DNA of 64,000 nt from an uncultured Gammaproteobacteria bacterium (GTDB lineage: Bacteria; Pseudomonadota; Gammaproteobacteria; DRLM01), in assembly GCA_963729605.1 (NCBI GenBank), contig CAVSNY010000006.1, positions 1-64,000 on the forward strand, written 5' to 3'. The translations under genes and the position numbers were made by a program. How positions within the stretch are numbered: the first letter of the stretch is position 1; each line of letters opens with the position of its first letter. The notes beneath the pieces were generated by a model that saw nothing but the letters and a program-made list of their open reading frames with translations, made no database searches and had not been told where the DNA came from. This document shows, in pieces, positions 1,299-64,000 of the stretch.

Positions 1299-1451
1299 GA
1301 TACACCTCGATATTTAGGCGTCGCCCGCGCACCGCGGGTGACGTCAAATGTTTATAAATCACGTTTCGATAATTGGAACCCGGCATTGCAAGGCCCCTCG
1401 GATGTAACACGAGATCGGTGCCGCCCCGTTTGCGGAGTCTCGGTATCTTAT

Positions 1452-1589
1452 GGAACAGATTCCCCGCAGCACACGGCTGTGCCGTCATTTTTCAATGGCG
1501 TCAGCCCTTGAAAAATGGCGGCAAGCGAAAATCACCTGTTTCCCTTTCCCCCGTTCTGAAAATTCACAATGGAATTATTCAGCGCTTTC
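1452..1589. mobile_element. MITE-like dispersed repeat, copy A (inverted relative to 12958-13107)
   Basis: Reverse complement aligns over ~135 bp with 12958-13085; ends TTATTCAGCGCTTTC followed by TTAA; internal hairpin 1481-1522. Confidence 0.7.
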
Positions 1590-1671
1590 TTAAAATTATT
1601 AGAATTAAATCTTTCCGCCGAACGGGCGGACACGGTTAGGGTTTCCAGCCGCGCCGCGTGTAATCGGCGAC

Positions 1672-6266: not shown

Positions 6267-6324
6267 GGAATTCTTTCCGCTCGGTTGCCGTGCCGTTGAA
6301 ATGCGAAGGACCGCTCATGACTGA

Positions 6325-28048: not shown

Positions 28049-28066
28049 TGACTTTCCCCTCGCACC

Positions 28067-44672: not shown

Positions 44673-45715
44673 AATATGACGCCTCTTTTCCCTTTATCGG
44701 CGGTGCCTGGGAAAACCTTCAACAACGCCTGGGCGATATCGCCCACCGGCAACACTTCCACCGCCGCCTTGAGCTGCACGGCCGTTTTAGGCATGCCGTA
44801 CACCGCGCAGGTCGATTCGTGTTCCGCGATAGTATGATGTCCCCGCTCGCGCAGCCGCAGCAGCCCCATGCCACCGTCGCGCCCCATACCGGTCAGCAGG
44901 ACCCCGACCACTCCGCCCCGCCAATAGTTGGCGACACTTTCAAAAAACACATCCACCGACGGTCGATACACCAAGTCGCGCGGCACCGCGGTATACGTGA
45001 GGCGCAACATATCGGTCAAGACCAGATGATCGTTGGTCCCCGCCAACAGCACGGTGCCGACCGCGGGCCGGTCGCCATCGCGAGCCAGGCGCACCGGGAG
45101 CGCGCATTGCGCGTTCAACCATTCGGCCAATTCACCCGCGAATTGCGCATCGACGTGTTGGATGATCACGACCGCGCCGGGAAAATCGGCGGGCAGTCGC
45201 GACAATATCGTCGCCAAGGCCTTGGGACCGCCGGTAGACGAACCGATGGCGAGCAGTTTTATTCCACTCGATGCGCCGACCACCTTTTCACCGACCGAAC
45301 CGTATGAACGGCGGACCGTGGTAGTCCTGGTCAATTTTTCAATGGTCGATATCTTGGCCAGCAAACCCGCCGCACCCTGCTCGCCTTCCTGGGCGAGTAT
45401 CGGGGTGCGCACCGCATCCAAGGCACCGGCGCCCATGGCCTCGAACACCAGGGACGCGTTGCCGCCGACCGAACTGGTCACCACCAAAATCGGGCACGGG
45501 GTATTGATCATGATTTGCCGGGTGGTTTCCGCGCCGTTCATCACCGGCATGATCAAATCCATCAAGATCAAATCCGGCCGATCCTCGGCGCAACGCTTGA
45601 CCGCCTCAGCGCCGTCGCGCGCGACCCAGGCGACTTGATGCTGACCGGCGCTGTTCACCACCCGCCGCAAACTCTCCACCGCAAGCGTCATGTCGTTGAC
45701 AATGGCTATCCTCAC
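44669..45715 (-). CDS. wspF: CheB-type methylesterase, WspF
   Basis: MRIAIVND, GSSTGGP, QHVD..F, LTGMGRDG. Confidence 0.93.
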   Translation of the reverse strand: MRIAIVNDMTLAVESLRRVVNSAGQHQVAWVARDGAEAVKRCAEDRPDLILMDLIMPVMNGAETTRQIMINTPCPILVVTSSVGGNASLVFEAMGAGALDAVRTPILAQEGEQGAAGLLAKISTIEKLTRTTTVRRSYGSVGEKVVGASSGIKLLAIGSSTGGPKALATILSRLPADFPGAVVIIQHVDAQFAGELAEWLNAQCALPVRLARDGDRPAVGTVLLAGTNDHLVLTDMLRLTYTAVPRDLVYRPSVDVFFESVANYWRGGVVGVLLTGMGRDGGMGLLRLRERGHHTIAEHESTCAVYGMPKTAVQLKAAVEVLPVGDIAQALLKVFPGTADKGKRGVIL

Positions 45716-48669: not shown

Positions 48670-49370
48670 GTCATCACCCTCTTGAGGGCGGAGAATAATA
48701 ATTTCTCATCCAGGCAACCGACATGCTTATCTCCGAGATCCAACATGCCTTTCATGTAGTTTGTCGCGCTGTGTTCCGCGGTCGCAGGCACATTCTGCAA
48801 ATCAATAGAACCGTAACGATAGATACCTTTCACCTCGCTGACGGGAAACACGTATCTATTTTCCTTATCCGAGAACACCACCAAACGCGCATAAATCCCC
48901 TGCGTGGCATCGTCGCTGGAAACGGCCCTTTTATCCACGCCCAGCAAACGGCCCAGTGAAACGCACAGCTGTAATTCGCCGCGAATATTGACCAGTCCTT
49001 TGAGGACGCTGCTCTTGGCATGGGGGACGCGATGGACTACGCGCATATCCACCACCTCCTGGAACAGGCGGGCCGGCAGCGCCAGCCACTCTTCGGCGAT
49101 CCGGAACACGACGACCGATAGCGAGTTTTGATCTTTTTTCTTTTTGATCTGCTTAAGCTGCTCGGTCCAGGTTTTTATATATTCCGGATCCGCCGCCCTA
49201 TCCAGGAGCAAACGGCCGCTGCTCGAATAGACCTTGCAATTGGCGCAGTGAATGACTTTATCCAACTCGGGACAACGCGGTTTTTCATTGCCCCACACGC
49301 CGATCCGATTCCAACAATCGTTGATGACGATACCGTCCGCCGGCTTGACGTTTTCCTTGACATTACTCAT
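48666..49370 (-). CDS. wspD: CheW-type adaptor, WspD
   Basis: DCWNRIGVWG...CPEL...HC.NC.VY N-terminus plus CheW domain. Confidence 0.92.
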   Translation of the reverse strand: MSNVKENVKPADGIVINDCWNRIGVWGNEKPRCPELDKVIHCANCKVYSSSGRLLLDRAADPEYIKTWTEQLKQIKKKKDQNSLSVVVFRIAEEWLALPARLFQEVVDMRVVHRVPHAKSSVLKGLVNIRGELQLCVSLGRLLGVDKRAVSSDDATQGIYARLVVFSDKENRYVFPVSEVKGIYRYGSIDLQNVPATAEHSATNYMKGMLDLGDKHVGCLDEKLLFSALKRVMT

Positions 49371-49418
49371 GGTCCATTCCTCTATGCATCGCCGCATCTC
49401 TCACGTCATGATTCATCA

Positions 49419-50741
49419 CTATTTATCTTTTTCCATGACGCGAGACGCCCGCGAACGATAAACGGCGGCCGCGGCCCAATTTCCCAGCAATTCAGCCTGC
49501 GTGGCAAGGTGCACCAAGGCCTGGTAGTGGCGAGGATCCAAGTACACCGCTTTGCGAAACAATTCGCCGGCGGAAGAATCTTTTCCCTCCGCCTGTCTAA
49601 TCAAACCCAGTAAATAATAACCCTCCGCGGAAACACTGTTTCTGGCCAAGAACTTTTCACAAAACTCCGCCGCCTCCGTCAATTCGCCTTTATCCGCCAG
49701 CCTTCTCACTTCCTTCAAATCCGCATCGTCATCGTTATGGCTCGGCGATAATCTACCGGGGAAATGGCCCGGCGGCCTGGCGTTGTGGGCCGATCCCGCT
49801 TCCAGCGCCGATGTCTCGCCGGAAAAAACCTTTTTTTCCACGACATGGTTATTAGTCGGTTTTTGCTGAAGCGGCTTGGCGGAGGATTCGCGTTTTTTCA
49901 GCGGAGCACCGGCCGTGTCCGCCGACGGGACGGCTTCGTGATCGGCCGGCGATCTTTTACGGAAGGCGAAGGTTCCCGATTGCTTCATGGATAAGAAGAG
50001 GTCGTTAGGCAGCCTGGCACCCTCGGCATGACCGACGAATAACAAGCCATTTTTCGCCAGCACCCGATGCAATTTATCCACGGCCTCTTCTTGTTGGTCG
50101 CGCCTGAAATAAATCAGGACATTCCTGCAAAAAATCACATCGTACAGCTCCGAACTCGGCAGATATTTCGGGTTCAATAAATTCTCGTGCTGTAAATTAA
50201 CCATCTTTTTAATGGCATCGTTCAGCACGTAACCTTCCTCGGTCTTATTGAAATACCGGGAGCGGTAATTGCCTTCATCGCCCCTAAAAGAATTCGGACC
50301 GTAAACCGCGCGCCGCGCCCGATTAAGCGCGCGAACGCTGATGTCTACCGCATCGACCCGCACCGTCTCGGCGCTGAACCCCATGTCTTTTAACGCCATG
50401 GCAATCGAATAAGGTTCCTCGCCGGTCGCGCAAGGGATGCTTAATATTCTCAACACTTTTTCACGGGACGGAGGAAACCATTCGCGGCGCACCACTTCGG
50501 TCAACAAGCGAAAGGGATCCCGATCCCTGAAAAACCAGGTTTCCGGTACCGTGACGGCGTCGATCAATTCTTGGAGCTCAACCGGATCTTTTTTGACCTT
50601 GGCGAAATAATCCTCGGCCCGCTCCACGCCCACTTCATCCATGCGCTGGCGAACGATCCTCTGCACGGTGTTGTTGCCGATGGACTCGCTGTCGAGGCCC
50701 ATCGCTTCCAACAGAAGATTTTCTATAGCGCTGATATTCAT
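49419..50741 (-). CDS. wspC: CheR methyltransferase with TPR, WspC
   Basis: VPETWFFRD, PCATGEEPYSIAM, FCRNVLIYF, RKAVYLDP.H. Confidence 0.93.
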   Translation of the reverse strand: MNISAIENLLLEAMGLDSESIGNNTVQRIVRQRMDEVGVERAEDYFAKVKKDPVELQELIDAVTVPETWFFRDRDPFRLLTEVVRREWFPPSREKVLRILSIPCATGEEPYSIAMALKDMGFSAETVRVDAVDISVRALNRARRAVYGPNSFRGDEGNYRSRYFNKTEEGYVLNDAIKKMVNLQHENLLNPKYLPSSELYDVIFCRNVLIYFRRDQQEEAVDKLHRVLAKNGLLFVGHAEGARLPNDLFLSMKQSGTFAFRKRSPADHEAVPSADTAGAPLKKRESSAKPLQQKPTNNHVVEKKVFSGETSALEAGSAHNARPPGHFPGRLSPSHNDDDADLKEVRRLADKGELTEAAEFCEKFLARNSVSAEGYYLLGLIRQAEGKDSSAGELFRKAVYLDPRHYQALVHLATQAELLGNWAAAAVYRSRASRVMEKDK

Positions 50742-51220
50742 CGCCCGGCCTCGGCCTGTATTTTTTCGTCTTCCAAGGGACTGAATAAGCTATCCCGCAA
50801 GTCGGCTGGCAAGAGTTTATCGAGGCGGATGCACTGAACCATGCCTTTTTCATCCATGGCCAATTCGCCGAGAAATTCGGCGCTCTGCGCCCCACGTCCC
50901 GAAGAGATGAAAGAGGATCGAGCGAATTTCGCGGTTTCCGTCACATGTTCGGCCAGCAGGCCCAGCATGTGCTGGCCGCCGCCGCCGTAGGGATAGTCAA
51001 CCACGATGATGCGGGTGCTGAGATGACGCCGCACCGTGTCGCCGCTGATCATTTTCGAGACATCGATGACCGGAACCGCCACACTGCGGTAATTGAACAA
51101 TCCCGCCACGTAATCGGGCGTTTTCGGCAGGCGTTTTAGATTAACGTGCGGTATGACTTCGATGACGTGCCTGACGTCCAACCCGAAGCGATCTTCCCCG
51201 ACGGTGAAGAGAAGCAACAT
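50738..51220 (-). CDS. wspB: CheW-type adaptor, WspB
   Basis: F.VG..RF.LD, VAGLFNYR...VPVID. Confidence 0.9.
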   Translation of the reverse strand: MLLLFTVGEDRFGLDVRHVIEVIPHVNLKRLPKTPDYVAGLFNYRSVAVPVIDVSKMISGDTVRRHLSTRIIVVDYPYGGGGQHMLGLLAEHVTETAKFARSSFISSGRGAQSAEFLGELAMDEKGMVQCIRLDKLLPADLRDSLFSPLEDEKIQAEAGR

Positions 51221-51244
51221 GATATTTACCTCGCAGCGGCGACA

Positions 51245-53302
51245 TTAAGCACTCGCGAACCACGACCCGGATTCATGCGTGCGTTTCTGCACCTTGAAGC
51301 GCGACACCCCGGTTTGCAGGCCATGGGCGGCGTCGTTGAGGCGCTCGATGGCGGAATTGGATTGCCGTATGGAATCCACCGTCTGTTGCGCGGCTTCGTT
51401 GAGCTGGATCATCGCCTGCTTGATCTGATCGGCGCCTTGCGACTGCGATTGCATGCCCTCATGCACGCTTTCAAAACGCGGCGTGAGGGCTTGCACTTGC
51501 TCGATGATTTGTACGAGTTGAGTACCGACCGACTCCACTTCCGCGACGCTGCGCCGCACCTCCTCCGAGAATTTCTCCACGCTCATCACCCCCGCGGTGA
51601 CCGCCGATTGCATCTCCTTCACCATCTGCTCGATGTCCCAGGTGGCCACCGCGGTCTGATCGGCCAAACGGCGAATCTCGGTGGCGACCACCGCGAAGCC
51701 TTGGCCATATTCGCCGGCTTTTTCAGCCTCGATCGCGGCATTGAGAGAAAGCAAGTTGGTCTGATCGGCCACCTTGGTGATGGTGGTGACCACGGTATTA
51801 ATGTTGCTGGCCTTTTCGTTGAGCACTTCGAGTTTGGAGGCGATCGAGGCGGATGCCTCCACCACTTGGTGCATGGTCGATTCCATCTTGTCGAGGCCCG
51901 CCTGGCCGTGACTGGCGGCGGTCGCGGTGGTTTCCGCCACCCGCGCCACTTCCTCCATGGTCCTGACCAGCTCTTTCGACGTGGCGGAAATTTCGGTGGA
52001 CGTCGCGACGATCTCGTTGACCGTGGCGGCCTGTTCGGCGGCGGTCGCCTCCTGTTGTTTGGCGGTGGCGGCGATTTCAGTGGCCGATGAAGTCACTTGG
52101 ATACCCGACTGCTGGACTTGATTGACCAGCCCGCCCAGGTTGTCGACCATTTTTTGTACACCGTTCGCCAATTTGCCGATGGTGTCTTCGCCGCGGATTT
52201 CCAAACGTCCCGTCAAATCGCCCTCCGCGGCACGGATCACCACGCCGAGTATGGTGTCCACCTTTTGCTGAAGATCATCCATCGCCCGGCGCCTGTCTTC
52301 AATCAGTTCGCGCAAATTGTCGATCATCTTCTGCAAGCCCTTGCCAAGCTTGCCGATCGCATCTTCGCCGGAAAAAGGGACCTTACTGGTCAAATCGCCC
52401 GACGCGGTTTTGTCCACCGCATCCAAAAGGATGTTGACCTTGTTCGCCAACTCCTCCGCAATCTGCCGTTCGCGTTCCTGGTGTTCGCGCTCCCGTTGAG
52501 TCGATGAATCGACATTATCCGCCATGGAGTTGAAGGCCATGGCGAGTTTGCCCAGCTCATCGTTGTTGTGGACCACCGCCCGCACACTGTTATTGCCGCT
52601 CGTGCGCGCGTTCAAGGTATCCATCAAGTTTTGCAGCGGGCGGGATATCCAGCCGCGGAACAGAAGATTGACGACCAACAAGCCGCCCATCAGCAACACT
52701 ACATTCGCGAGCGCGCCGACCCACAATTCCTTTTCAACGCCGGCGTCCATATCGGCTAAGGAATAGGTCAAACGGATAGCGCCGTTCACCGACCCCGAGG
52801 GGACTTGATGACATTGCAGGCAATTAACGCCGCGCGTATCGGCGGTGGCTCGAAAGGGCGTCATGACGGTGACCGTGCGCCCCTTTTCGTTCTTGCCCAC
52901 CACCAAGATGTCTTCCCCCATCAAGGCCCTTTGATCGAGATCGTCCATGGGCTGCTCTTCGGGGAAACCGACGCCGAATTGTGCTTTTACCGGTAAACCC
53001 CGAACGACTCTCGCCTCGAGGACATTGGTACGGCGCAGCATTTTTTCGCGCAGGATATTTCTCTGGTCCATAGTGCCGGTCAGCATCATGGTATTGAGGC
53101 TGTCGAAATACAATGTCGAGGTGTCTTTGATTTGCGTTTCCGCCAACAGAAGAATGGCTTCTTTTTGGCGGATACCGGAATAAATCGTCACGGAGCCAAC
53201 GACCAGTATGAAGATCATGGCCACGGTGAAATTGATTTTTGCGCGCACGGATAAACGATTGGCGAAGGGAAGCCGATTAACGATGGTTTGCATGGTATGC
53301 AT
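51245..53302 (-). CDS. wspA: Methyl-accepting chemotaxis protein (WspA position) with periplasmic CxxCH
   Basis: 2 TM helices, periplasmic CLQCH, HAMP repeats, [40 protein letters not shown]. Confidence 0.88.
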
Positions 53303-53458
53303 CCTTTTTCATTGCACCACCGAACAATCTGGTGAATGTAATGGCCTGACTAATATGTCATTTTAATAACGCCCCTTTTAGAATGGCCATCGAATCACTT
53401 CGCCGTTCCTTGCGGGACCTGACTGCAAACGGGCACACCTCACGTGAACCCATTGCTA

Positions 53459-53485
53459 TCAACGGCTAAGGGCATTAAAACTTTA
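53459..53485 (-). promoter_or_regulatory. sigma28 (FliA)-type promoter for the wsp operon
   Basis: Minus strand TAAAGTTT-N11-GCCGTTGA versus consensus TAAAGTTT-N11-GCCGATAA. Confidence 0.65.
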
Positions 53486-53851
53486 ACCAGCGCCGCACAC
53501 ATTCCCTGCCGGACCCCTTTACCGACAAAACCAACCTTCGCCGCCAAAATTTGGCGACGAAATTGACCGTCACAGGAAAGAAACACCATATTTTTATTGA
53601 CGTTACGGAGAAACCCTGTTAAAAATCCACCTTGCGCGGGAATATGACTATTAAAAATTTTTAGCTTTTATAAACACGCGCTCGGTTGGTACTTGGGTAG
53701 GGACATCGATTCCACAAATGACAGTGGTGCTCACATATTTCAGCACCGTTCGCGACCCTGACTTAGGGGCGCGGGTCTGGTTTCCCATTTCTCGGCAATT
53801 GTTCATCATAAATTTATATTGGTGCGGCAACGCATCGTCGGAGTGGCAAGG

Positions 53852-56404
53852 ATGGCCGCCATGAATGGGCTCAATAAAGACGTTATTGAGTTTCCCAAAC
53901 CCAAACCGCGCGCGCCGGAGCCGCGGCGACAAGCCCGCATTCTCATCGTCAACGACCAAGACGATATTCTTCACCTGTTATCGAAAATCCTGACCAAAGA
54001 AGGTCATTTTCAGATCAGCGAGGCCCGCGACGGCGGTGAAGCGATCCGCCGGCTCCGCGGAGAACCGATAGATCTGCTGATCACCGATATTCATATGCCC
54101 CGGTTGGATGGCTGGCGGCTGGCCCGCATGGTGCGTTCCGGTCTATTCAACTGTCCCGCCACCACGCCGATCATCGTGGCCTCGGCCACCTTCAGCGAAC
54201 GCATCGCCGAAACCACCGCCCGCGAATTCGAGGTCAATCGTTTCTTATCCCTGCCGCTGGCAGACCGCGGTGAATTGGTGCGTTCCGTAGAGACCCTCCT
54301 CGCCGACTCCAACCCCATGCTTAAAAAGCCTCGACTGCTGATCATCGAGGACGACCCGGATACCACGATACTTGCGGAACGGATGTTGCGCGGCCGCTTC
54401 GACATCGAAACGGTGGGGGACGGTGACGCGGGTCTGGCGTCGTGGCGTAAACAGCACCATGACCTGGTGTTGCTGGACGTCATGCTGCCCAAGATGGCGG
54501 GGCCGGAAGTGCTGCGCACGATACTGGCGGAAGACCCGCAGCAGACCATCATTATCATGACCGCCGACAGCAGCGCCGAACGTTGTGAATCGCTGATGCT
54601 GGAGGGCGCGGTCGATTTCGTGTCCAAACCATTTCACGCCAACCAATTGCGCCAAATTTGTGAAATCGCGGTACGGCGGGCCGACTGCCTGGTCAGCAAT
54701 CATCAGTTCTCGGAGCGCACCCGCGCCCTCAAGACCGCGCAAAGCCACTACCACAAAATCGTCGACGCCCATCAGCGCTTGCTGGACAATCTCAGCTCGG
54801 TGGTATTTGAACTCGACCCCGACGGCCGGCTGCGTTTTCTCAACCGTGCCTGGGAACAGCTCAGTCATTTCAAAACCCACGAGAGCATCGGCCGGTTTCT
54901 TTACGACTTTCTGGCGCCACTGGACCGCGGCCAATGCCGCAGCGTCATCCGCGCCTTGGCGCAAGGCCGTAAACAGCACCACGAACAGGAAGTCCGCCTG
55001 CTCAGTAAACGCGGTGAGACGGTGTGGACCGAAATCACCCTCAACGTCAAACCGCATCCGGACACGGGTATCGAAGCGATTTTCGGCCACCTTACCGACA
55101 TTACCGAGCGCAAATTGGCCATGGCCCAATTGGAGCATCTGGCCATCCACGATTCGCTGACCGGCTTATACAACCGCCGCTACTTCGAAATCGGTCTGGA
55201 ACATATGGCCGCCAGCAGCGCCCGCTCCGCGGGCTCCCACGCGCTGCTCTACATCGACCTCGACCACTTCCAAATAGTCAACGACGCGATAGGCCATCGC
55301 GAAGGCGACATGGTGCTCAAGGAAATCGCCACTTTATTATCCTCCCGCACCCGGGAGGCCGACTTGCTATGTCGGATCGGCGGCGATGAATTCGCGATCC
55401 TGCTCACCCACGCCGATGCCGAGCAAGCCACGGCCGCCGCCTACGGCCTCGTCGAAGTCATCAACAATTTCCGTTACCGCCACGAGGGGCTCGAAATCGC
55501 CTTGGGATGCAGCATCGGCATCAGCCTGATCGACGGCGGTCAACCGTCGGGCGCGGTCCATCTCATGCAAGCGGACAAGGCCAGTTTCTCGGCGAAAAAC
55601 CGCGGCCGCAATCTGGTCCATATCTACAATCCGGCCGACAAGGACAGCGACGAATTACGGCAGAGCATCGACTGGGCCCACCGGGTCCGGCAGGCCATCA
55701 ACGAGGATCGTTTGGAACTCTATGTCCAACCCATCCTCGAACTCGCCACCGGCAAGATCAATCATTACGAGGCGCTGTTGCGCCTGCGCACCCGCGAACC
55801 CGTCGACATCATCACGCCGGGCATTTTTATCCCCGCCGTGGAAAAGGCCGGGCAAATCCACATGCTCGACCGCTGGGTCATCAAACGCGCCATTCAAATG
55901 TTGTCCACTCAAAACCGGTTGTCCCAACTGGCGATCAACCTCTCCGGCCACGCCTTCGCCGATCCCGATCTACTCGGCTTCGTCCAAAACGAGTTGGATA
56001 GCCAGCGAGTGGACCCCAAGCGGATCATCTTCGAGATCACCGAAACCGCGAGCGTGGCCAATATCAATGAAACCCAGCGCATGATCAACCAGCTACAGAG
56101 CCTGGGTTGCCGCTTCGCCCTCGACGATTTCGGCACGGGCTTCTGTTCGTTCCATTACCTGCGGCATCTCCCTACCGACTTTCTGAAATTAGACGGTTCG
56201 TACATCAAAAACATCGCCGATAACGACCTCGACTTCGCCATGGTGCGTTCCATGAACGACATCGCCCACATCCTCGGCAAAAAAACCATTGCGGAATGTG
56301 TCGAAACACCGGCCGTCCTGCATCGTCTGCGAGAAATCGGCGTGGACTACGTTCAAGGACACGGCATAGGGCATGCCTTACCCCTGGAGTTTTACTCCGC
56401 TTAA
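53852..56404 (+). CDS. REC-REC-PAS-GGDEF-EAL protein (start 53852 or 53861)
   Basis: Two receiver domains (TDIHMP, LDVMLP), PAS/PAC, READ I-site plus RIGGDEF, YEALLR, LDDFGTG. Confidence 0.93.
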   Translation: MAAMNGLNKDVIEFPKPKPRAPEPRRQARILIVNDQDDILHLLSKILTKEGHFQISEARDGGEAIRRLRGEPIDLLITDIHMPRLDGWRLARMVRSGLFNCPATTPIIVASATFSERIAETTAREFEVNRFLSLPLADRGELVRSVETLLADSNPMLKKPRLLIIEDDPDTTILAERMLRGRFDIETVGDGDAGLASWRKQHHDLVLLDVMLPKMAGPEVLRTILAEDPQQTIIIMTADSSAERCESLMLEGAVDFVSKPFHANQLRQICEIAVRRADCLVSNHQFSERTRALKTAQSHYHKIVDAHQRLLDNLSSVVFELDPDGRLRFLNRAWEQLSHFKTHESIGRFLYDFLAPLDRGQCRSVIRALAQGRKQHHEQEVRLLSKRGETVWTEITLNVKPHPDTGIEAIFGHLTDITERKLAMAQLEHLAIHDSLTGLYNRRYFEIGLEHMAASSARSAGSHALLYIDLDHFQIVNDAIGHREGDMVLKEIATLLSSRTREADLLCRIGGDEFAILLTHADAEQATAAAYGLVEVINNFRYRHEGLEIALGCSIGISLIDGGQPSGAVHLMQADKASFSAKNRGRNLVHIYNPADKDSDELRQSIDWAHRVRQAINEDRLELYVQPILELATGKINHYEALLRLRTREPVDIITPGIFIPAVEKAGQIHMLDRWVIKRAIQMLSTQNRLSQLAINLSGHAFADPDLLGFVQNELDSQRVDPKRIIFEITETASVANINETQRMINQLQSLGCRFALDDFGTGFCSFHYLRHLPTDFLKLDGSYIKNIADNDLDFAMVRSMNDIAHILGKKTIAECVETPAVLHRLREIGVDYVQGHGIGHALPLEFYSA

Positions 56405-56541
56405 AATCGTCGCGCCCGCTCATCCTGCGTGCAACGATAAACGGCGGACCGATCGACAATTCGCAATATTCACTCGATACAATTTGTTGCAAGCAATCCG
56501 ACAGTCTATTATTGTGTGTATCTGTATCCGGGAGAACGTTG

Positions 56542-58506
56542 ATGTCGTCTATCACCCCTAGCGATGCTCTTAATAAGAATAACGAATATCATGACACCTC
56601 CCGAGCACAGCCTTTCAGTGCCGCGGACCTGATACTTTATTACCTGGAACAACTCGACATCGATTTCGTGTTCGGCATCCCCGGCGGGAGCATCGAGCCT
56701 TTATATAATGCCTTGGCCCGCAGCCAACGCCGCGGTGGGCCCCGCCCGGTCGTGGCCCGCCACGAAACCGGCGCGGCCTTCATGGCCGACGGCTACGCCC
56801 GCGAGACCGGTAAGCTCGGCGTGTGTTGCGCCACCACCGGCCCCGGCGCCACCAATATGCTCACCGGCGTGGCCTCCGCCTACCAAGACCAAATCCCCCT
56901 TCTGGCGATCACCGCCCAAACGCCGCTTCGCACCTTTGGCCGCGGCGCGGTGCAAGAATCCAGCTGCACCGGCATCAACACCGTGGCCATGTATGAACAC
57001 TGTACCCGCTACAACACCCTGGTCTCGCACGTCGATCAGTTGGAGCGCAAATTGATCAGCGCCATCACCATCGCCATGCAGCCGCCTTGCGGTCCGGTGC
57101 ATTTGAGCATTCCGCTGGACGTACTCCGCGAACCGGTGAACATCCAACCCGGCCATAATCTCAAATCCCTGCTTTATCCCTCCTTTGCCGTGGATGACGA
57201 AGCAGTCGATCAGCTGCAGAATACCTTGCGCACGTCCCGCAATGCCGTATTCGTGTTGGGCGCCGGCGCGGGCAAGGCGGTGGGTACCATTCTTGAAATC
57301 GCCGTACTGCTCAATGCGCATGTCATTACCACTCCTCACGGCAAAGGCCTGATCAGCGCTTATCATCCCCAATACCGGGGCGTATATGGGCTGGCGGGCC
57401 ATCCCACCGCGCACGGTCTGCTCAAGGATCCCAGCGTGGACGTCGTGCTGGCGATCGGCACCGACCTGGACGAACAGGCGACCAACAGTTGGGACCACAG
57501 CGCCCTGATGGGTAAAAAAGTGGTGTTCATCGACTCCACGCCTCAGCATTTCTCCCGTTCGCCCATGGCGCGTCAACACATCAGCGGCAATCTGCGCAGC
57601 CTGTTCGAAAGACTGATCGGCCGTTTATACAGCAACCGCAAAGATCAGCAGGACGTGTTCTGGCAATTTTCCGAACATAATCGGCCGCGCAATTTTCCGG
57701 TCGTGCAATTCGACCGCCGCGCCAGCGACCGCCGCCACCTCACGCCTCGGCCGCATTTTTCGGAAGGCGTCACTCCGCTGCGCACCAAGGAAAACCGCCA
57801 AACGCTGGACCGGCGCCGCGACCTCGCCATCCCGCAGACCGCGCGCCGCTTCGCGTTAAAAGACGAGGACAAATATATCTCCAACGCCGTCCCCATCAAA
57901 CCGCAACGGCTGATGTACGATTTATCCCGGCTCTTCCCACCCACCACCCGTTTTCTCGCCGATATCGGCAATAGTTTCCTGTGGGTCATCCATTATCTGC
58001 ACCCCTACGACCGCCGAATCATCGGTGACCGCGCCCTCGCCTCCGGCCTGATCCGGCTGGGCATGGGCTTCGCTTCCATGGGTTGGGCCATCAGCGCCGC
58101 GGTGGGCACCGCGGTCGCCTGTCGCGGCAATCCGGTAGTCTGCATCGCCGGCGATGGCGCCGTGCTGATGAGCGGCCAGGAATTGAACACCGCGGTGCAG
58201 GAAAAACTGCCTATCATTTACGTCATCCTCAATGATGCCGCCTTCGGCACCGTCAAACATGGCCAACAAATGGCCGGCGCGGAACCCATCGCCTTTGAAT
58301 TGCCTCCCATCGATTTTGTCGCCTACGCCAAATCCATGGGGGCGGACGGTTACCGCATCGATTCGCCCGAGGACATGGCGGCTCTCGACATCGCCGCGCT
58401 CTGCAACCGCGCCGGCCCCACCGTACTCGATGTCCACATCGATCCGCATGAACGGCCGCCCTTGGAACAACGTATCAAAATGCTCAATGTCGATGCCAAC
58501 GCATAG
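56542..58506 (+). CDS. ThDP-dependent enzyme, acetolactate-synthase-like family (probably not IlvB/IlvI)
   Basis: FGIPGG, ARHETGA.FMADGYAR, TTGPGATN, ThDP motif GDG..LMSGQE..LND; GGAG RBS before ATG 56542. Confidence 0.9.
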   Translation: MSSITPSDALNKNNEYHDTSRAQPFSAADLILYYLEQLDIDFVFGIPGGSIEPLYNALARSQRRGGPRPVVARHETGAAFMADGYARETGKLGVCCATTGPGATNMLTGVASAYQDQIPLLAITAQTPLRTFGRGAVQESSCTGINTVAMYEHCTRYNTLVSHVDQLERKLISAITIAMQPPCGPVHLSIPLDVLREPVNIQPGHNLKSLLYPSFAVDDEAVDQLQNTLRTSRNAVFVLGAGAGKAVGTILEIAVLLNAHVITTPHGKGLISAYHPQYRGVYGLAGHPTAHGLLKDPSVDVVLAIGTDLDEQATNSWDHSALMGKKVVFIDSTPQHFSRSPMARQHISGNLRSLFERLIGRLYSNRKDQQDVFWQFSEHNRPRNFPVVQFDRRASDRRHLTPRPHFSEGVTPLRTKENRQTLDRRRDLAIPQTARRFALKDEDKYISNAVPIKPQRLMYDLSRLFPPTTRFLADIGNSFLWVIHYLHPYDRRIIGDRALASGLIRLGMGFASMGWAISAAVGTAVACRGNPVVCIAGDGAVLMSGQELNTAVQEKLPIIYVILNDAAFGTVKHGQQMAGAEPIAFELPPIDFVAYAKSMGADGYRIDSPEDMAALDIAALCNRAGPTVLDVHIDPHERPPLEQRIKMLNVDANA

Positions 58507-58527
58507 TCCAAGCAGCGGATCGAGGTC

Positions 58528-59349
58528 ATGACAGACAAAAGCGATAAATTCAACACCCGGATTTGGGACGAAGTGCCCGAGGCCGACAACCCTTTCGCCG
58601 CCGCCGCCAGTTTTTGTCATGGTTATAATGTGTACGGCGACCTGCTCGGCAAAGCCGGTTGGATAGAATACCTCTATCTCTTGTTTCTCGGTGAACCTCC
58701 CTCACGACAGCAAGCCACGTTATTGGAAGGTATTGCCGTCGCCCTCGCCAATCCCGGCATACGGGATCATAGCGTTCATGCCGCAATGAACGGCGGGGTT
58801 GGCGGCTCCACCAGCGCCGCCTGTTTGATGGCGGCCCTCGCGGTCGGCGCGGGACAACTCGGCGGCGCACACGAAGTGTATCGGGCGATGGAATACTGGC
58901 ACAGCGGCGGCCTCGATTCCGCCGCCTGGGAAACCCTGCTGCGCAATCCACCGCAGGAAGAGCGGATCGATATCTGGCTGCCCATGGAACATCCCCCCGG
59001 GTTCGATCCTCACGGCGCCAGTTGCAGCACACCGGTCCGCCAAACCTTGGCCTACCTCAGCGGGTGTAGCCCCGGTCCGCATTTGGCTTGGCTGCAAGAA
59101 CAGCGGGAGAGACTCGAAAAAATCGCCGATGCCCCCCTTGCGATGAGCGGGGTGGCGGCCGCTACCTTCATGGATCTCTCCCTCAGCGCGGACCAAGGGG
59201 AGATGCTTTATTTACTGCTGCGTCTGCCCGGCGCCGCCGTTCACGCGTTAGAACAGAAGGAATATGGCTGGCGACGATTTCCGTTTTTTGCTGGCGCCAT
59301 AAAAATGAACAACAACCCTGACACGCGAAGCTCGGCTGCGATTTTGTAG
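58528..59349 (+). CDS. Citrate synthase / citryl-CoA lyase-fold protein 1 (divergent)
   Basis: GY.VY.DL.GK, YL.L.GE.P, GGA, PGF, LRLPG...HA.EQ; canonical His/Asp replaced. Confidence 0.75.
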   Translation: MTDKSDKFNTRIWDEVPEADNPFAAAASFCHGYNVYGDLLGKAGWIEYLYLLFLGEPPSRQQATLLEGIAVALANPGIRDHSVHAAMNGGVGGSTSAACLMAALAVGAGQLGGAHEVYRAMEYWHSGGLDSAAWETLLRNPPQEERIDIWLPMEHPPGFDPHGASCSTPVRQTLAYLSGCSPGPHLAWLQEQRERLEKIADAPLAMSGVAAATFMDLSLSADQGEMLYLLLRLPGAAVHALEQKEYGWRRFPFFAGAIKMNNNPDTRSSAAIL

Positions 59350-59361
59350 GAGTATACGACA

Positions 59362-60198
59362 TTGCGTTCGCCATCCGCCCTGCTCAGCAATGAAAACAAC
59401 TGGCACACGACCGCCGGTTCGGCATTACCAGGACAACCCGTCATATATCGAGACAAAGATCTTTTTAAGGACCTCAAGGATTCCCGCTGGCTGCAGTTAT
59501 TAATGTATGGAATAACCGGCCGCTCTTTTGACGAGAAACAAATCAAGCTCCTTGAAGGCATCTGGGTTATATGCACGAGTTATCCCGAGGCCCGCTTATG
59601 GAATAACCGGATCGCGGCCCTGGCCGGCACCGTTAGGACCACGGGTTCTTTAGGTATTGCAGCCGCGATTGCCGCCTCCGAGGCAAGTATCTATGGCCAA
59701 AGACCGGCAATTAAAAGCATAGAATTCTTAATTCGCACCCAAGAAAACCTCGACAAGGGACATAATTTAAAAACCTTGATCACCCATGAGCTAAAAACGC
59801 AGCGTGTAATCCCTGGGTACGGACGCCCACTCATTGGTACCGATGAACGGATTCCCGTAATGATGTCTCTCGCCGAAGAGCTTGGCTATGCGAACGGGTC
59901 CTATGTGAAGCTCGCCTTTGACATAGAAAAGACTTTGCTTGATGGACGTTGGAGGCTTCACATGAACGCGGCGAGTTTGATCGCGGCCTTAGTGGCCGAC
60001 CAAGGCATCAAAGCACGAGAACATTACCTTTATATGATCCAATGTTTCACAGCAGGTATGCTTCCTTGTTATGTCGAAAGTGCGTCCCACCCTGAGGGTA
60101 CTTTTTTGCCAATCCGATGTAGCGGCATCAATTATATCGGGCCACAAAGACGGGCATGGACGAGCGCGGGCACTCAACACAATGCGTCAAAAATGTAA
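59362..60198 (+). CDS. Citrate synthase / citryl-CoA lyase-fold protein 2 (divergent)
   Basis: YR.KDL, TGR, IPGYGRP, DER, MN, C-terminal Y.GP..R; TTG start after AGGAG. Confidence 0.75.
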   Translation: MRSPSALLSNENNWHTTAGSALPGQPVIYRDKDLFKDLKDSRWLQLLMYGITGRSFDEKQIKLLEGIWVICTSYPEARLWNNRIAALAGTVRTTGSLGIAAAIAASEASIYGQRPAIKSIEFLIRTQENLDKGHNLKTLITHELKTQRVIPGYGRPLIGTDERIPVMMSLAEELGYANGSYVKLAFDIEKTLLDGRWRLHMNAASLIAALVADQGIKAREHYLYMIQCFTAGMLPCYVESASHPEGTFLPIRCSGINYIGPQRRAWTSAGTQHNASKM

Positions 60199-60200
60199 TT

Positions 60201-62279
60201 ATGAAAAATAGCACTTATAGAACTCCCGTGATTCTCAGCTTCATTTTTAATGCTTTCGGGACCGCCGCTGTAGCAGTAGAAGATGATTTTTCACTCATGT
60301 ATGGCGATACGGAGTTCGTCACCATCGCGACAGGGGTACAACAAACCATAGCCCACGCCCCCGCCGTAGCCTCGGTCATTTCAGCAGAAAGTATTAAGGA
60401 AATCGGCGCCAGAGATCTTGACGAAATCCTGGAAACCATTCCGGGACTACACGTAGCAAGATCAAATCGTTTATATAACCCTGTATACACGATACGGGGA
60501 ATATATTCCGAAACGAATCCACAGATCCTGATTCTTATCAACGGCATCCCCATCACCAACATCTTTGCCGGCGACCGCAGTCAAGTTTGGGGAGGGATGC
60601 CGGTCAATAATATCGCCCGCATTGAAATCATCCGCGGCCCGGGCTCGGCGGTTTATGGCGCGGACGCCTTTTCAGGCGTCATCAACATCATCACCAAAGA
60701 CGCGAATAATATCGATGGCACCGAAATCGGTGCGCGGGTCGGTTCGTTTGATACAAAAGAGACTTGGCTACAATACGGCGGCGAACACAACGGTTTAAGC
60801 ACCGCCTTCTCTTTTGAATATGGAGTGACCGACGGCCAGCGGGAAACTGTTCAAGCCGACGCTCAAACCGGCCTGGATGGCTTATTCGCAACGAGCGCCT
60901 CGCTGGCCCCCGGCCCAGTGAACTTGGGACGAAAATATTTGGATACCCGCGTTGACTTAAGCATCACCGCTTGGCGGCTGCGCCTGGGTTATCAAGGTCG
61001 GCGCGATGTGGAAACCGGGGCTGGCGTGGCGCAAGCGCTCGATCCCGTCGGCGACAATCAAAGCGATCGGTTCAACGCGGACCTCACCTACCGCTTTACG
61101 CGCGTGGAGAATTGGGACACCAGCATCGAACTGAGTTATTTCGACACCAGCGCCCGTTCCGAGCTGGTGTTGTTTCCACCCGGCGCCTTCGGCGGGGCGT
61201 TTCCGGAAGGGCTGATCGGCAATCCGAACGTCTATGAGCGGCATACCCGCTTTGGGATATCCAGCTTTTATACGGGCTGGGAGAAACACCGGATTCGTTT
61301 GGGCGCCGGTTACAATTTCAGCGATCTATACAAAGTTACAGAAAGCAGAAATTATTTTTTCGCGCCGGGCGGCATCCCCGTCCCCCTGGGTAGCGTCGTT
61401 GACGTTAGCGATTCAGCCGCCTTTGTGCGAGAGGAAGACCGCAAAATAACCTATCTATTCGTTCAAGATGAATGGATGTTCGCGCGGGATTGGAGTCTCA
61501 CCGCCGGAATAAGATACGACAATTATTCGGACTTCGGCGACACCATCAATCCGCGTGCGGCCATCGTCTGGCAAACGTCCTTCGACCTCACTAGCAAATT
61601 TTTGTACGGCCGCGCCTTTCGTGCGCCCTCGTTTGCCGAACTTTACAACATCAACAATCCTGTCGCGCTGGGCAACGCCAATCTCGAGCCGGAAACCATC
61701 GACACCATAGAACTCGCCTTCGATTATCAAATATCCGGCAAGGCGCGCACCGGATTAAATCTCTTTTATTACCAGATGCGAGACATCATTCGCCCCATCA
61801 ATGACCCCGCCCCCGCCACTACCGTAACGGCGCAAAACAGTGGACGCCAGTCCGGTTACGGGCTGGAATGGGAAGTGAACTGGAGTATCACCAACACTGT
61901 ACGTCTCATCGGCAATTATGCGCTGCAACGTTCGGAAGACGACAACACCGGCTCGGATTCCGGCAACGCGCCGCATCATAAAATTTATACCCGCGTCAAC
62001 TGGCGCCCGTTAAACAACTGGAATATCAGCCCGCAGATCACCTGGGTTGGCGAACGCCAGCGGGTCTCCGCCGACTCGCGGCCTCCGGTGGACGACTACC
62101 TCACCATCGATCTAACCGTTCGCCGCACCCAGGATATTAATAAGTTCGCGCTGGCCGGTTCGATCCGTAATCTGCTGGATGAAGATGGATACGAACCCAG
62201 CCTTAGCCCTGGTCAAATTCCCAATGATCTGCCCATGGCGGGACGAAATTTCTATGTCGAGGCACAATATTTTTTCTAA
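60201..62279 (+). CDS. TonB-dependent outer membrane receptor
   Basis: Signal peptide, plug motifs (APA..SVI, IRG, RIEIIRGPGSAVYGADAFSGVINIIT), FRAPS..ELY, GRNFY, C-terminal F. Confidence 0.95.
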   Translation: MKNSTYRTPVILSFIFNAFGTAAVAVEDDFSLMYGDTEFVTIATGVQQTIAHAPAVASVISAESIKEIGARDLDEILETIPGLHVARSNRLYNPVYTIRGIYSETNPQILILINGIPITNIFAGDRSQVWGGMPVNNIARIEIIRGPGSAVYGADAFSGVINIITKDANNIDGTEIGARVGSFDTKETWLQYGGEHNGLSTAFSFEYGVTDGQRETVQADAQTGLDGLFATSASLAPGPVNLGRKYLDTRVDLSITAWRLRLGYQGRRDVETGAGVAQALDPVGDNQSDRFNADLTYRFTRVENWDTSIELSYFDTSARSELVLFPPGAFGGAFPEGLIGNPNVYERHTRFGISSFYTGWEKHRIRLGAGYNFSDLYKVTESRNYFFAPGGIPVPLGSVVDVSDSAAFVREEDRKITYLFVQDEWMFARDWSLTAGIRYDNYSDFGDTINPRAAIVWQTSFDLTSKFLYGRAFRAPSFAELYNINNPVALGNANLEPETIDTIELAFDYQISGKARTGLNLFYYQMRDIIRPINDPAPATTVTAQNSGRQSGYGLEWEVNWSITNTVRLIGNYALQRSEDDNTGSDSGNAPHHKIYTRVNWRPLNNWNISPQITWVGERQRVSADSRPPVDDYLTIDLTVRRTQDINKFALAGSIRNLLDEDGYEPSLSPGQIPNDLPMAGRNFYVEAQYFF

Positions 62280-62314
62280 GCCGCGCAACACGGACTAAGA
62301 AACATTTTTCCGAT

Positions 62315-63949
62315 TCATATCCGGCCCGCTTGATTTCCATCCACCGCGCGCGGCAGTAAACCTCCCGTCAGCAAAATACCTTTTACTGGGAGAGGTATCC
62401 TCACTGAAAAAACCGACCCCTGTTGGGGCACGCTTTTTACCGTGATGGTCGCCCCCAACAGATGACACAGTCTTTGGGTGATGCTCAGGCCCAACCCGGT
62501 CCCGCCATACTCGCGGGTCGTACTCATATCCGCCTGGCGGAATTCTTCGAAAATATGGGCCTGCTGATCTTCAGACATACCGATTCCGGTGTCGGAGACC
62601 ACGATCACCAGCAATTCTTTGGCGATACTCACCGATATTTCGATGTGGCCGCACTTGGTAAATTTGCTGGCATTGCTCAACAAATTCAGTAAAATTTGCC
62701 GAAGCTTCTGCGCGTCGATCAATACCATATCCTGCTCGCCTTCAACCCGCACCGAAAGTTGATTGTCGTTTTTCTTGACGAGCACCCGCACCGTATCCAC
62801 CGCCTCGGCGACCAACTCCCGTATGTCGGTTGCCTCAAGCCAAACATCCATCCGACCGGCTTCGATTTTCGCAAGATCCAAGATGGTGTTGATCATCACC
62901 AGCAGATGATTGGCGGCGCTATGCACCCGCCGCAGGTCGGTCACCACCTCGTCATTGCCTTCAATTTCCATCTCTTCGATCACCATCTCCGAATAACCGA
63001 TGATGGCATTGAGCGGGGTGCGCAGCTCATGGCTCATGTTCGCCAAGAATTCCGATTTGTGCCGACTGGCCAGCAGCGCCTCGTCGCGTGCCTCCACCAA
63101 TTCGCGGGTGCGCGAAGACACCAAGGCTTCCAGATTATCGTTTTGCTCGCGCAACTGCCGATCCCGCTCTTCGAGCGCGGCGATCATTTTATTGAAGACG
63201 CGCGCGATGGTTCTAACCTCGGCGGGACCTTCAATCAACGCACGGGAATGACCTTCGCCTTCTCCGGTTTTGCGCATCACCACCGCAAGGGCCTGCAGGG
63301 GCGAGGTGGCGCGGTTGACGATGCTGCGCAACAGCAAAAGCAACACTGCGGCGAAGACCAACGCAACGATGATGTTGTTTATGAAAATAGTCGCTTGAGT
63401 CTTGCGCAACTCGGCCTTGCTGACCGCGACATGTACGAAACCCAATTGTTCGACCCGCGGATCTTGCAGGTGAAATTGTGACTCTATCCCTTCTCCGCCC
63501 TCCGGCCGGGAATACACCGGCGCGAGAAAATGCAGAGATGAGCCGGTTTCCTCCATCAAGGATGCTTTATTAGGGGGGTCGGTCGCCGTCATTACCTCCA
63601 GCGCAGGCGCCCAATCCACCGTTTCTCCCTGTTTCAGTAAAAGGCTATGCTCCATATTATAAATAGAGACGTAGCGGACATTGGGAAAGGCCAGCGTCGC
63701 TTTGGCGGAATCGGCGGCATTCTCCTGAGAGGAAAGCAACAGCGCCAACACGCTTTGCGTCGCGAAATTATCGGTGATTTGCACGCCCTCCCGCACCAGC
63801 GATTCGCGCATATTCATGCTCTGCAAAACCGCGGTCGCCAGCGAGGCCAACAATGCCATGCAGGCGACACCCAGCGACACGGTGTATAAAAGTTGTTTGC
63901 GGAAACTCCACGACGGCGGCAATAGACGATCAAGGATATCCATGCTCAT
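62315..63949 (-). CDS. Membrane sensor histidine kinase (periplasmic domain, HAMP, HisKA, HATPase)
   Basis: [41 protein letters not shown]. Confidence 0.95.
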
Positions 63950-63952
63950 CTA

Positions 63953-64000
63953 TTATGGCGCCGGAAAAACAAGCGCGAACTCGCGCTGCTGTTCAATGGA
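63953..64000 (-). CDS. 3' end of an upstream gene (possibly a periplasmic binding-type protein)
   Basis: Open frame ...SIEQQREFALVFPAP* ending 3 nt before the kinase ATG; too short to assign. Confidence 0.4.
   Translation of the reverse strand, partial: SIEQQREFALVFPAP

Follow-up and report, generated by a model that had tools for sequence, protein, structure and literature searches.

Solute-binding proteins (SBPs) of the periplasm that govern sensor kinases and enzymes of cyclic di-GMP (c-di-GMP) turnover are an established principle of bacterial signalling, as laid out in the accessible text of PMC8050422. Here we describe a gene set that appears to join such a sensing arrangement to an outer-membrane receptor and to a small group of cytoplasmic enzymes. 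It occupies positions 53,852 to 64,000 of a 64,000-nucleotide stretch of DNA (hereafter, the window; contig CAVSNY010000006.1 of assembly GCA_963729605.1, positions 1 to 64,000, forward strand) from an uncultured gammaproteobacterium of the GTDB lineage DRLM01. Its parts are an enzyme dependent on thiamine diphosphate (ThDP), two proteins resembling citrate synthases (CSA and CSB; with the ThDP enzyme, “the trio”), a TonB-dependent receptor (TBDR), an SBP of family PF04392, a membrane histidine kinase and a GGDEF-EAL protein. The comparative evidence makes it highly probable that these genes form a conserved module wired to c-di-GMP. That the module as a whole makes a molecule, re-imports it and senses it via c-di-GMP is a proposal to which we assign a probability of roughly 45%. 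The gene set was not found described in the open full-text literature, subscription journals and preprint supplements being out of reach.

The described systems closest in logic include LuxP/LuxQ, which responds to autoinducer 2 (AI-2), and TorT/TorS. In these, as in the module, a binding-protein gene stands beside that of a membrane kinase whose periplasmic sensor domain is of the alpha/beta type (accessible text of PMC8050422), and their His-Asp-His-Asp multi-step relay is likewise found in most module loci. The module differs in its reader, a PF04392 protein; the accessible text of PMC8050422 names neither PF04392 nor TonB. It further adds a dedicated TonB receptor upstream, and its output is a fused or adjacent GGDEF-EAL enzyme. 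To our knowledge, the candidate synthase genes of the module are unrelated to LuxS. In Vibrio cholerae, the binding protein NspS controls the membrane GGDEF-EAL protein MbaA via its periplasmic domain, the ligand being a polyamine. That arrangement matches the four kinase-less module loci with an sCache_4-HAMP-PAS-GGDEF-EAL protein, but has no TonB receptor and no linked biosynthetic genes.

A secreted molecule that is imported by a dedicated TonB receptor, and whose arrival is turned into a signal, is familiar from pyoverdine (FpvA/FpvR/PvdS) and enterobactin (PfeA/PfeS/PfeR). The module, by contrast, has a receptor without a signalling domain, no sigma/anti-sigma pair or DNA-binding regulator, no Fur-box signal, and c-di-GMP as its output. 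Finally, three NCBIfam entries, the TOL_0243 YfiR-like protein, the TOL_0244 TonB receptor and a YfiR-associated kinase domain (NF053591, NF053590, NF053592), describe the same parts as one sensor variant of the module, type (e) below. In the Hahella locus, the YfiR-like protein (119.2 vs 125) and the kinase domain (193 vs 194) narrowly miss the respective cut-offs, whereas the receptor is far below that of the TOL_0244 family (161.9 vs 645). The window itself uses a PF04392 protein and a Cache-like kinase. No published function of this NCBIfam set was found. What sets the module apart from LuxPQ, NspS/MbaA and siderophore signalling is its PF04392 reader, its dedicated receptor lacking a signalling extension, its enzyme trio and its direct output through c-di-GMP.

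Gene order and conservation of the module

Genes in the window were placed by means of a list of open reading frames (ORFs), family scans (Pfam, NCBIfam) and direct reads of the sequence. The features are as follows.

53852..56404, + strand: REC-REC-PAS-GGDEF-EAL response regulator, the proposed c-di-GMP output (Pfam Response_reg in two stretches, PAS, GGDEF, EAL)
56405..56541, + strand: spacer 5' of the ThDP gene, candidate promoter or operator (proximal ~65 nt conserved in L001 and L002)
56542..58506, + strand: ThDP-dependent carboligase of acetolactate-synthase fold, nearest to alpha-hydroxy-beta-keto-acid (HKA) synthases (Pfam TPP_enzyme_N/M/C)
58528..59349, + strand: citrate-synthase-like protein A (CSA), citryl-CoA-lyase fold without the canonical His/His/Asp (profile and fold match to 6hxp)
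59362..60198, + strand: citrate-synthase-like protein B (CSB), distant paralogue of CSA (PF00285, 28.0 bits vs 27)
60201..62279, + strand: TonB-dependent outer-membrane receptor (Pfam Plug and TonB_dep_Rec_b-barrel)
62315..63949, - strand: membrane sensor histidine kinase (Pfam HAMP, HisKA, HATPase_c)
63953..64000, - strand: PF04392 periplasmic SBP, last 15 codons and stop, the remainder lying beyond the window (translation SIEQQREFALVFPAP)

The five co-oriented genes, the gaps between them (137, 21, 12 and 2 nt from the coordinates) and the kinase gene, which converges on the receptor gene across a spacer of 35 nt, all lie where the initial annotation of this DNA had put them. The longest ORF of the GGDEF-EAL gene starts at a TTG (53819), with an ATG at 53852, and the ATG of the ThDP gene (56542) is preceded by GGGAGAA. 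CSA and CSB, each about 275 aa long, have neither signal peptide nor transmembrane (TM) segment, and the same holds for the ThDP enzyme; the receptor and the SBP carry signal-like segments at their N-termini.

The initial annotation also held that the kinase is tightly coupled to an upstream gene. This is borne out, and the gene encodes the PF04392 SBP. The minus strand reads, in order, SIEQQREFALVFPAP (63956-64000), TAA (63955-63953), TAG and the kinase ATG at 63949, so that 3 nt separate the SBP stop from the kinase start. A 316-aa protein (L001:15432-16382, - strand) with a signal-peptide-like N-terminus and a PF04392 (ABC_sub_bind) match of 55.8 bits ends in exactly this peptide; L001 is closely related to the window, the two CSA proteins being 97% identical. 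The shared C-terminus and the 3-nt spacing indicate that the kinase is translationally coupled to an SBP that is not accompanied by transporter genes. For the cultured nitrifier Nitrosococcus oceani AFC27, a homologue of the SBP with 44% identity is on record (P0341; NOC27_882). A hairpin at 63987-63972 on the minus strand was considered as a terminator and rejected, as it lies within the coding end of the SBP.

For comparison, species-representative genomes were scanned for related loci, and the best 80 of at least 220 confirmed loci were taken with up to 10 kb on each side. Since contig ends cut many of these, frequencies are given for the 55 “full-flank” loci having at least 2.5 kb upstream and at least 9 kb downstream. 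The ThDP enzyme and CSB are, like CSA, present in every one of them, the TBDR in 52, a kinase in 44, a GGDEF-EAL protein in 43 and an SBP homologue, placed between receptor and sensor, in 41; all six partner types occur together in 39 of the 55. Co-occurrence in other genomes, on which the initial annotation had staked its proposal, is therefore strong. Clustering of 1024 ORFs from the 80 loci returned CSB (76), ThDP (73), CSA (69), receptor (60), kinase-type sensor (47) and SBP (41), and any family beyond these six is found in 16 loci at most. Counted from CSA, the median gene starts (+827, +1701, +3850, +4775) leave nearly no intergenic space. This conservation supports the view that the genes form a functional unit.

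The carriers are taxonomically broad. Among the Gammaproteobacteria they include Porticoccaceae, Methylococcaceae, Hahella, Marinobacter, Oleiphilaceae, Cycloclasticus, Colwellia, Chromatiales and Thiotrichales, and among the Betaproteobacteria Collimonas, Dechloromonas and Gallionellaceae; one locus each is labelled Dongiaceae, Geobacterales, Desulfuromonadaceae and Planctomycetota. Porticoccus, methanotrophs and iron and sulfur oxidisers are among the carriers named, and we take those belonging to Porticoccus, Cycloclasticus, Marinobacter and the Oleiphilaceae to be hydrocarbon degraders. No plasmid-borne copies were found by tblastn. Pairwise identities of CSA rise with those of five other module proteins (Spearman 0.54 for CSB, 0.51 for ThDP, 0.68 for TBDR, 0.55 for the kinase and 0.25 for the SBP), values that come without an unlinked control gene and hence are not evidence. 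In a CSA tree from a quick search only (68 of the 69 clustered CSA ORFs, L018 being left out for its length), one clade takes in six of the eight YfiR-type rows, and another, with a support of 99, the three Cache-GGDEF-EAL rows. The tree bears only on the apparent clustering of these two sensor types. Two differing copies of the trio, in separate CSA subclades, come from one and the same Porticoccus metagenome-assembled genome (L012 and L014), and represent a real duplication or a mixed bin.

Five sensor arrangements were distinguished by domain mapping over the 80 loci, with examples checked against Pfam. In type (a), found in 33 of the 80, the receptor and the SBP are followed by one protein of ~1500 aa with the order Cache-like, HAMP, HisKA, HATPase, REC, Hpt, REC, GGDEF, EAL; in L025, this protein is broken in two. 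Type (b), in four loci (Gallionellaceae and other Betaproteobacteria/Pseudomonadota), has the SBP and then an sCache_4-HAMP-PAS-GGDEF-EAL protein, with no kinase. The window, L001, L002 and L034 form type (c), in which a short kinase accompanies the SBP and a separate REC-REC-PAS-GGDEF-EAL protein is encoded directly 5' of the ThDP gene. Type (d), in three loci, is a hybrid kinase without GGDEF-EAL, two more being cut by a contig end. In type (e), made up of six loci (Hahella, Marinobacter, Oleiphilaceae), the SBP and its kinase give way to a CHASE8 kinase, which is encoded next to the receptor together with a REC-GGDEF-EAL protein; five of these loci have a detected YfiR-like DUF4154 gene, and four a single REC gene. 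The window GGDEF-EAL protein is 31-34% identical to the GGDEF-EAL halves of the fused proteins.

Nothing speaks more strongly for cooperation between the window kinase and its GGDEF-EAL neighbour, or for c-di-GMP as the output, than the fusions of types (a) and (b); c-di-GMP is also the only conserved output across the loci. The link from kinase to GGDEF-EAL protein, as drawn in the initial annotation, finds backing in a single fused protein at 33 of the 80 loci and in the constant gene position at L001, L002 and L034. To judge from their motifs, both window proteins look competent. The kinase has TM1 at residues 19-45, a periplasmic domain at ~46-183 (~140 aa), TM2 at 184-215, then HAMP, HisKA and HATPase, with the H-box SHELRTP at residue 306. 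Its periplasmic domain can be aligned with those of 32 orthologues, and in L015, L005, L065 and L079 this periplasmic domain matches sCache_4 with scores at the cut-off or close to it. The GGDEF-EAL protein retains RxxD and GGDEF (501-514), EALLR (640), DDFGTG (758) and ECVE (815), and Asp acceptor sites are present in its REC domains, as read by eye from the translation.

Some indication of how the operon may be controlled comes from the spacer before the ThDP gene. In the window, L001 and L002, the ~65 nt immediately 5' of the ThDP start (56477-56541) are far better conserved than the rest of the spacer and may hold a promoter or operator for the operon of enzymes and receptor. A simple promoter scan listed no site in 56405-56541, and a search of 53000-64000 against Rfam returned no family at E<=1, riboswitch or other RNA. 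A k-mer search gave weak motifs only, likely stemming from close relatives.

The enzyme trio

The ThDP enzyme carries all three TPP_enzyme domains of the acetolactate synthase (ALS) type. E75, G537-D538-G539 and N564 are invariant across 30 orthologues; we take E75 to be the catalytic Glu and GDG...N to be the ThDP-binding motif. In all 25 NCBIfam families shown (ALS, acetohydroxyacid synthase (AHAS), AlsS, ScyA and related), the enzyme lies below the cut-off, as exemplified by TIGR00118 (290.8 vs 538.35) and AlsS NF006378 (273.2 vs 510). Its top sequence matches in the Protein Data Bank are BbmA (295.5 bits) and CsmA (268.6), any ALS scoring at most 212.5. The top fold matches of its model (mean predicted local distance difference test, pLDDT, 82.6) are 8x3x, 8xod and 8x3z, entitled “ThDP-dependent HKA synthase”, and the top six have TM-scores of 0.91-0.93. 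By sequence and by model, the enzyme thus appears closest to HKA synthases, not to AHAS, its best matches being BbmA/CsmA (8x3x, 8xod, 8x3z) and CqsB3/NzsH. No open-access paper on BbmA was found in the full-text literature.

HKA synthases are placed in natural-product pathways in the accessible parts of PMC13307353 and PMC7466098. In carbazole biosynthesis, the ThDP enzyme CqsB3 makes such an acid, which is passed to a partner resembling ketoacyl-ACP synthase III (KASIII), and HKA synthases that use aryl-pyruvates are known as well (accessible text of PMC7466098). In the module, this KASIII-like partner is replaced by a pair of proteins with a citryl-CoA lyase (CCL) fold, and a KASIII gene is found in L060 only. 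The suggestion of the initial annotation that the ThDP enzyme belongs to secondary metabolism is in keeping with its ALS/AHAS scores below cut-off, its HKA-synthase relatives and the tailoring genes of some modules. Between its middle and C-terminal domains, an Arg-rich insert of low complexity with DRR-like words (residues ~360-440; 57619-57861) has pLDDT<50 in the model and is gapped in most of 67 sequences. Disordered in the model and gapped in most orthologues, this stretch is a variable linker.

CSA and CSB are considerably more divergent from named families. CSA has no Pfam match and reaches 49.9 bits against a cut-off of 245 in the NCBIfam CCL family; CSB barely passes PF00285 (28.0 vs 27) and reaches 41.1 bits against the same 245. 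Their sole clear solved relative is 6hxp, the 268-aa citryl-CoA lyase of Hydrogenobacter thermophilus, with profile matches at E 5.5e-10 for CSA and 1.1e-10 for CSB; it is also the best match in the CSA fold search (E 4.7e-6; the model is of moderate confidence, its mean pLDDT being 66.8). The all-alpha fold of citrate-synthase type is thus assigned to CSA by model and profile, and to CSB by profile alone. In size (~270 aa) and fold, both resemble 6hxp and the CCL module of ATP-citrate lyase. They are distant paralogues of one another (hhalign probability 96%).

The likeness does not extend to the active site. We take the AHGG (SAHGG), GYGH and NVDG motifs of 6hxp to hold the three catalytic residues of citrate synthase, His, His and Asp (pig H274, H320, D375). 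In HMMER alignments that are locally weak, and whose register may shift by 1-2 residues, these motifs face QLGG, LPME and AMSG in CSA and IYGQ, GYG-R and MNAA in CSB. Invariant in CSA instead are EHPPGFDPHG-SC and RLPGAAVHALEQ, and its mean column identity over 24 homologues is 74%, an unusually high value; across 32 aligned orthologues of CSB, GYGRP...DER is conserved where GYGH...DPR would be expected. With the catalytic positions replaced and other residues invariant, CSA and CSB are probably CCL-fold proteins with a different chemistry. The initial annotation gave these two proteins a citrate-synthase fold; ordinary citrate synthases or citryl-CoA lyases they are not, given that the alignments do not keep the three catalytic positions.

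Relatives of CSA are numerous. Among 5094 candidates scored, 3348 proteins match at E<=0.001, the best 120 being 63-97% identical, and among 1.84 billion representatives searched by profile, 493 proteins match at E<=1e-3, 276 at 1e-10 and 103 at 1e-30. Such relatives go by the names “citryl-CoA lyase” or “citrate synthase” in their source databases. No extended CCL-like relative, double-length forms included, reaches a curated CCL cut-off. In the ESM Atlas, CSA led only to unnamed or citrate-synthase-like clusters, and CSB to nothing usable. A search for longer proteins gave eight matches at E<=1e-20, of which seven are ThDP-CSA fusions (858-901 aa) and one is a CSA-CSB fusion (549 aa). These fusions make it very likely that the ThDP enzyme, CSA and CSB act together. 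A 574-aa CSA-CSB “fusion” in L010 proved to be an out-of-frame ORF artefact. An IS200-like Y1 transposase gene lies between the ThDP and CSA genes in the related loci L005 (9174-9710) and L009 (9351-9902), so tight ThDP-CSA coupling is not obligatory there.

Some loci carry additional enzymes. A short-chain dehydrogenase/reductase (SDR) gene stands inside the trio or within 300 nt of it in seven loci; a PF00891 O-methyltransferase gene is adjacent in three and lies inside the module in L007; L060 has methyltransferase, KASIII and SDR genes between CSA and CSB; and a glycosyltransferase gene is inside or beside the trio in L019. Tailoring genes of this kind are more in line with the biosynthesis of a small molecule than with catabolism or central metabolism. 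Further, the absence of ilv and tricarboxylic acid (TCA) cycle genes from the vicinity, which the initial annotation had pointed out, holds: no such family, the ilv small subunit, ilvC and alsD included, was matched among the scanned ORFs of the window. In one window scan, 14 of 24 ORFs had no match at E<=1e-40, a level at which canonical ilvB/C or gltA would score. The ilv small subunit, ilvC and alsD do not recur in the 80 loci either.

Proposed import and sensing, and alternative explanations

The receptor has a hydrophobic N-terminal segment (residues 8-27), a plug and a barrel domain, and a motif, EFVTIATG, that reads as TonB-box-like by the TonB-box consensus. It has no N-terminal signalling extension: Pfam gives Plug, barrel and OMP_b-brl_3 only, and the plug begins ~40 residues past the signal peptide. 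Nor does a sigma factor recur in the 80 loci. The 58 module receptors of at least 592 aa score 594-1479 bits against that of the window, those of YfiR-type loci 603-708, and the best solved receptor 96.5. Judged by these scores, the module receptors are one orthogroup. Since the same orthogroup is found across sensor types, the receptor and the trio are the constant core of the module, and the periplasmic reader has been swapped at least once. In L015 (19328-20777), a second TonB-receptor gene follows right after the sensor, as two ORF fragments of ~220 bits each against the module receptor, and may be a paralogue.

Taken together, these features lead us to the following scheme. The cytoplasmic trio, with an SDR, O-methyltransferase or KASIII in some lineages, would build a small acid-derived molecule; we infer both that it runs in the direction of synthesis and that its product is of this kind and is exported. 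Processing of the unstable tertiary-alcohol acid would fall to CSA and CSB, probably a heteromer in physical contact with the ThDP enzyme, and would follow a chemistry other than that of classical citrate synthase. The molecule would be released, and the dedicated TonB receptor would pump it, free or metal-bound, back into the periplasm. There the PF04392 SBP, or the YfiR-like protein in one clade, would capture it and dock on the Cache-like domain of the kinase. The kinase would then alter the phosphorylation of the REC domains in the GGDEF-EAL protein and thereby shift the balance between c-di-GMP synthesis and breakdown, with a sign that we can only infer. That the product of the trio is the ligand of receptor and SBP is suggested by the constancy of trio and receptor, the operon-like packing and the lack of a recurrent inner-membrane importer. 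Indeed, no inner-membrane transporter recurs in the module over the 80 loci, which fits periplasmic sensing better than nutrition. The initial annotation had the kinase itself sense the molecule in the periplasm. The gene arrangement indicates that sensing most likely goes through the SBP (a YfiR-like protein in one clade), a step not visible in the window.

Several observations weigh against this scheme. Small keto-acid derivatives are not the usual cargo of TonB receptors, whose ligands tend to be large or metal-bound. As CSA and CSB are without the residues of known citrate-synthase or CCL chemistry, their reaction is not assignable. No exporter recurs in the module over the 80 loci, which leaves release of the product unexplained, and no transcription factor or gene for transcriptional feedback is found in the module, so that the module shows no evident classical autoinduction loop. 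In six of the 55 full-flank loci (L046, L054, L059, L060, L062, L076), a trio is present but no sensor was detected, and the receptor is missing in three; the trio can evidently stand alone. NCBIfam curates YfiR-like/kinase/TonB-receptor sets as families of their own (TOL_0243/0244), and such sensor modules may be generic and merely recruited here. Further, kinases and GGDEF-EAL proteins are large families, and a few of the counts may be unrelated neighbours (e.g., L030, at -8 kb). Finally, the locus frequencies come from the best 80 of at least 220 loci and hence describe the closest relatives only.

An unlikely alternative is that the trio makes a metallophore. In this scenario, its product would be an alpha-hydroxy-carboxylate chelator, the receptor would import the metal-loaded form, and the SBP and sensor would report metal supply to c-di-GMP, in the manner of siderophore-responsive signalling. 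The receptor lies below the cut-off in all 25 NCBIfam receptor families shown (best 161.6 bits), and its closest named families, siderophore, haem and B12 receptors, would suit such a role, as would the fact that TonB receptors typically carry metal complexes. A citrate-synthase fold with an alpha-hydroxy acid product also recalls citrate-type chelators, and the carriers include iron oxidisers, methanotrophs and hydrocarbon degraders, whose metal demand is presumably high. A regulatory signature of metal limitation is nevertheless lacking: upstream of 70 ThDP genes, Fur boxes are not enriched, their best-match distribution resembling that of shuffles. Nor do the genes of a metallophore pathway accompany the module, in that no ABC permease/ATPase, exporter, nonribosomal peptide synthetase (NRPS) or NRPS-independent siderophore (NIS) synthetase recurs in the 80 loci. 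The SBP is paired with a sensor rather than with a transporter, and the conserved output is c-di-GMP alone.

We regard as similarly improbable an explanation in which receptor, SBP and sensor detect a foreign or environmental compound, and the trio is co-expressed without making the ligand, for instance as a metabolic response. The absence of an exporter from the module would be expected in that case, and the six full-flank loci with a trio and no sensor, as well as the stand-alone curation of comparable YfiR-like/kinase/TonB-receptor sets, with the Hahella proteins scoring just under the cut-offs (119 vs 125, 193 vs 194), point the same way. Yet the trio has this one receptor orthogroup as its neighbour in 52 of 55 loci, and a swap of the sensor type makes no difference to this; there is no inner-membrane importer to bring such a compound to cytoplasmic enzymes; and the gene order is operon-like. 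A chance neighbourhood of primary-metabolic genes, i.e., an acetolactate synthase and two citryl-CoA lyases, has in its favour the database names “citryl-CoA lyase” and “citrate synthase” and the three ALS-type domains of the ThDP enzyme, but is hardly credible in view of the ThDP scores under every ALS/AHAS/AlsS cut-off among the 25 families shown, the 50 and 41 bits of CSA and CSB against CCL cut-offs of 245, the unconserved catalytic positions, the receptor synteny in 52 of 55 loci, and the lack of an ilv small subunit, ilvC or TCA match in the window.

If the make, re-import and sense scheme is correct, its implications reach beyond this locus. It would amount to a new type of synthase and a new logic for sensing other cells or the environment, in which energy-driven import across the outer membrane precedes detection and is tied directly to c-di-GMP, and so to the switch between motile and biofilm life. 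Given the lifestyles of its carriers, the module could bear on biofilm formation on oil, minerals or roots. A first function would also be at hand for the large group of proteins named “citryl-CoA lyase” that are without the catalytic residues. A bolder notion, to which we would give only limited credence, is that the module represents a widespread and previously unrecognised class of extracellular signalling, combining an HKA synthase and new CCL-fold chemistry with “import to sense” and c-di-GMP output without a transcription factor. Bacteria of dilute waters and sediments could in this way sense neighbours or diffusion limits at very low levels of signal. The signal may then be aromatic, as the PF04392 binding protein has Trp/Tyr-binding relatives by name, O-methyltransferase genes occur in some modules, and HKA synthases that use aryl-pyruvates exist. 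Because cultured carriers exist (Hahella, Collimonas, Dechloromonas hankyongensis), the hypothesis is directly testable.

Neighbouring genes

Elsewhere in the window, at 669-7515 on the minus strand, an AcrR-like repressor gene accompanies a three-part resistance-nodulation-division (RND) efflux pump (outer channel, permease, adaptor); some 49 kb separate it from the module, with which it is not conserved. A pair of genes at 25667-29050 (- strand) resembles the anti-phage peptidase IteS and ATPase IteA, with scores well under the cut-offs (141.7 vs 900 and 263.3 vs 510). Two further GGDEF-EAL proteins are encoded at 7814-10390 (- strand) and 17255-19342 (+ strand), which brings the total of GGDEF-domain genes in the window to four; the second of these proteins has an N-terminal match to the NCBIfam entry “T2SS_HK” (280 bits vs a cut-off of 450). 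Divergent from the GGDEF-EAL gene of the module is a complete Wsp-like chemosensory operon (43524-53302, - strand), in the order methyl-accepting chemotaxis protein (MCP), CheW, CheR-TPR, CheW, CheA-REC, CheB, REC-GGDEF. A Wsp-like cluster adjoins the module also in L001, L002 and L059, and CheR- and MCP-like matches are found upstream of the ThDP gene in L005, L006 and L009.

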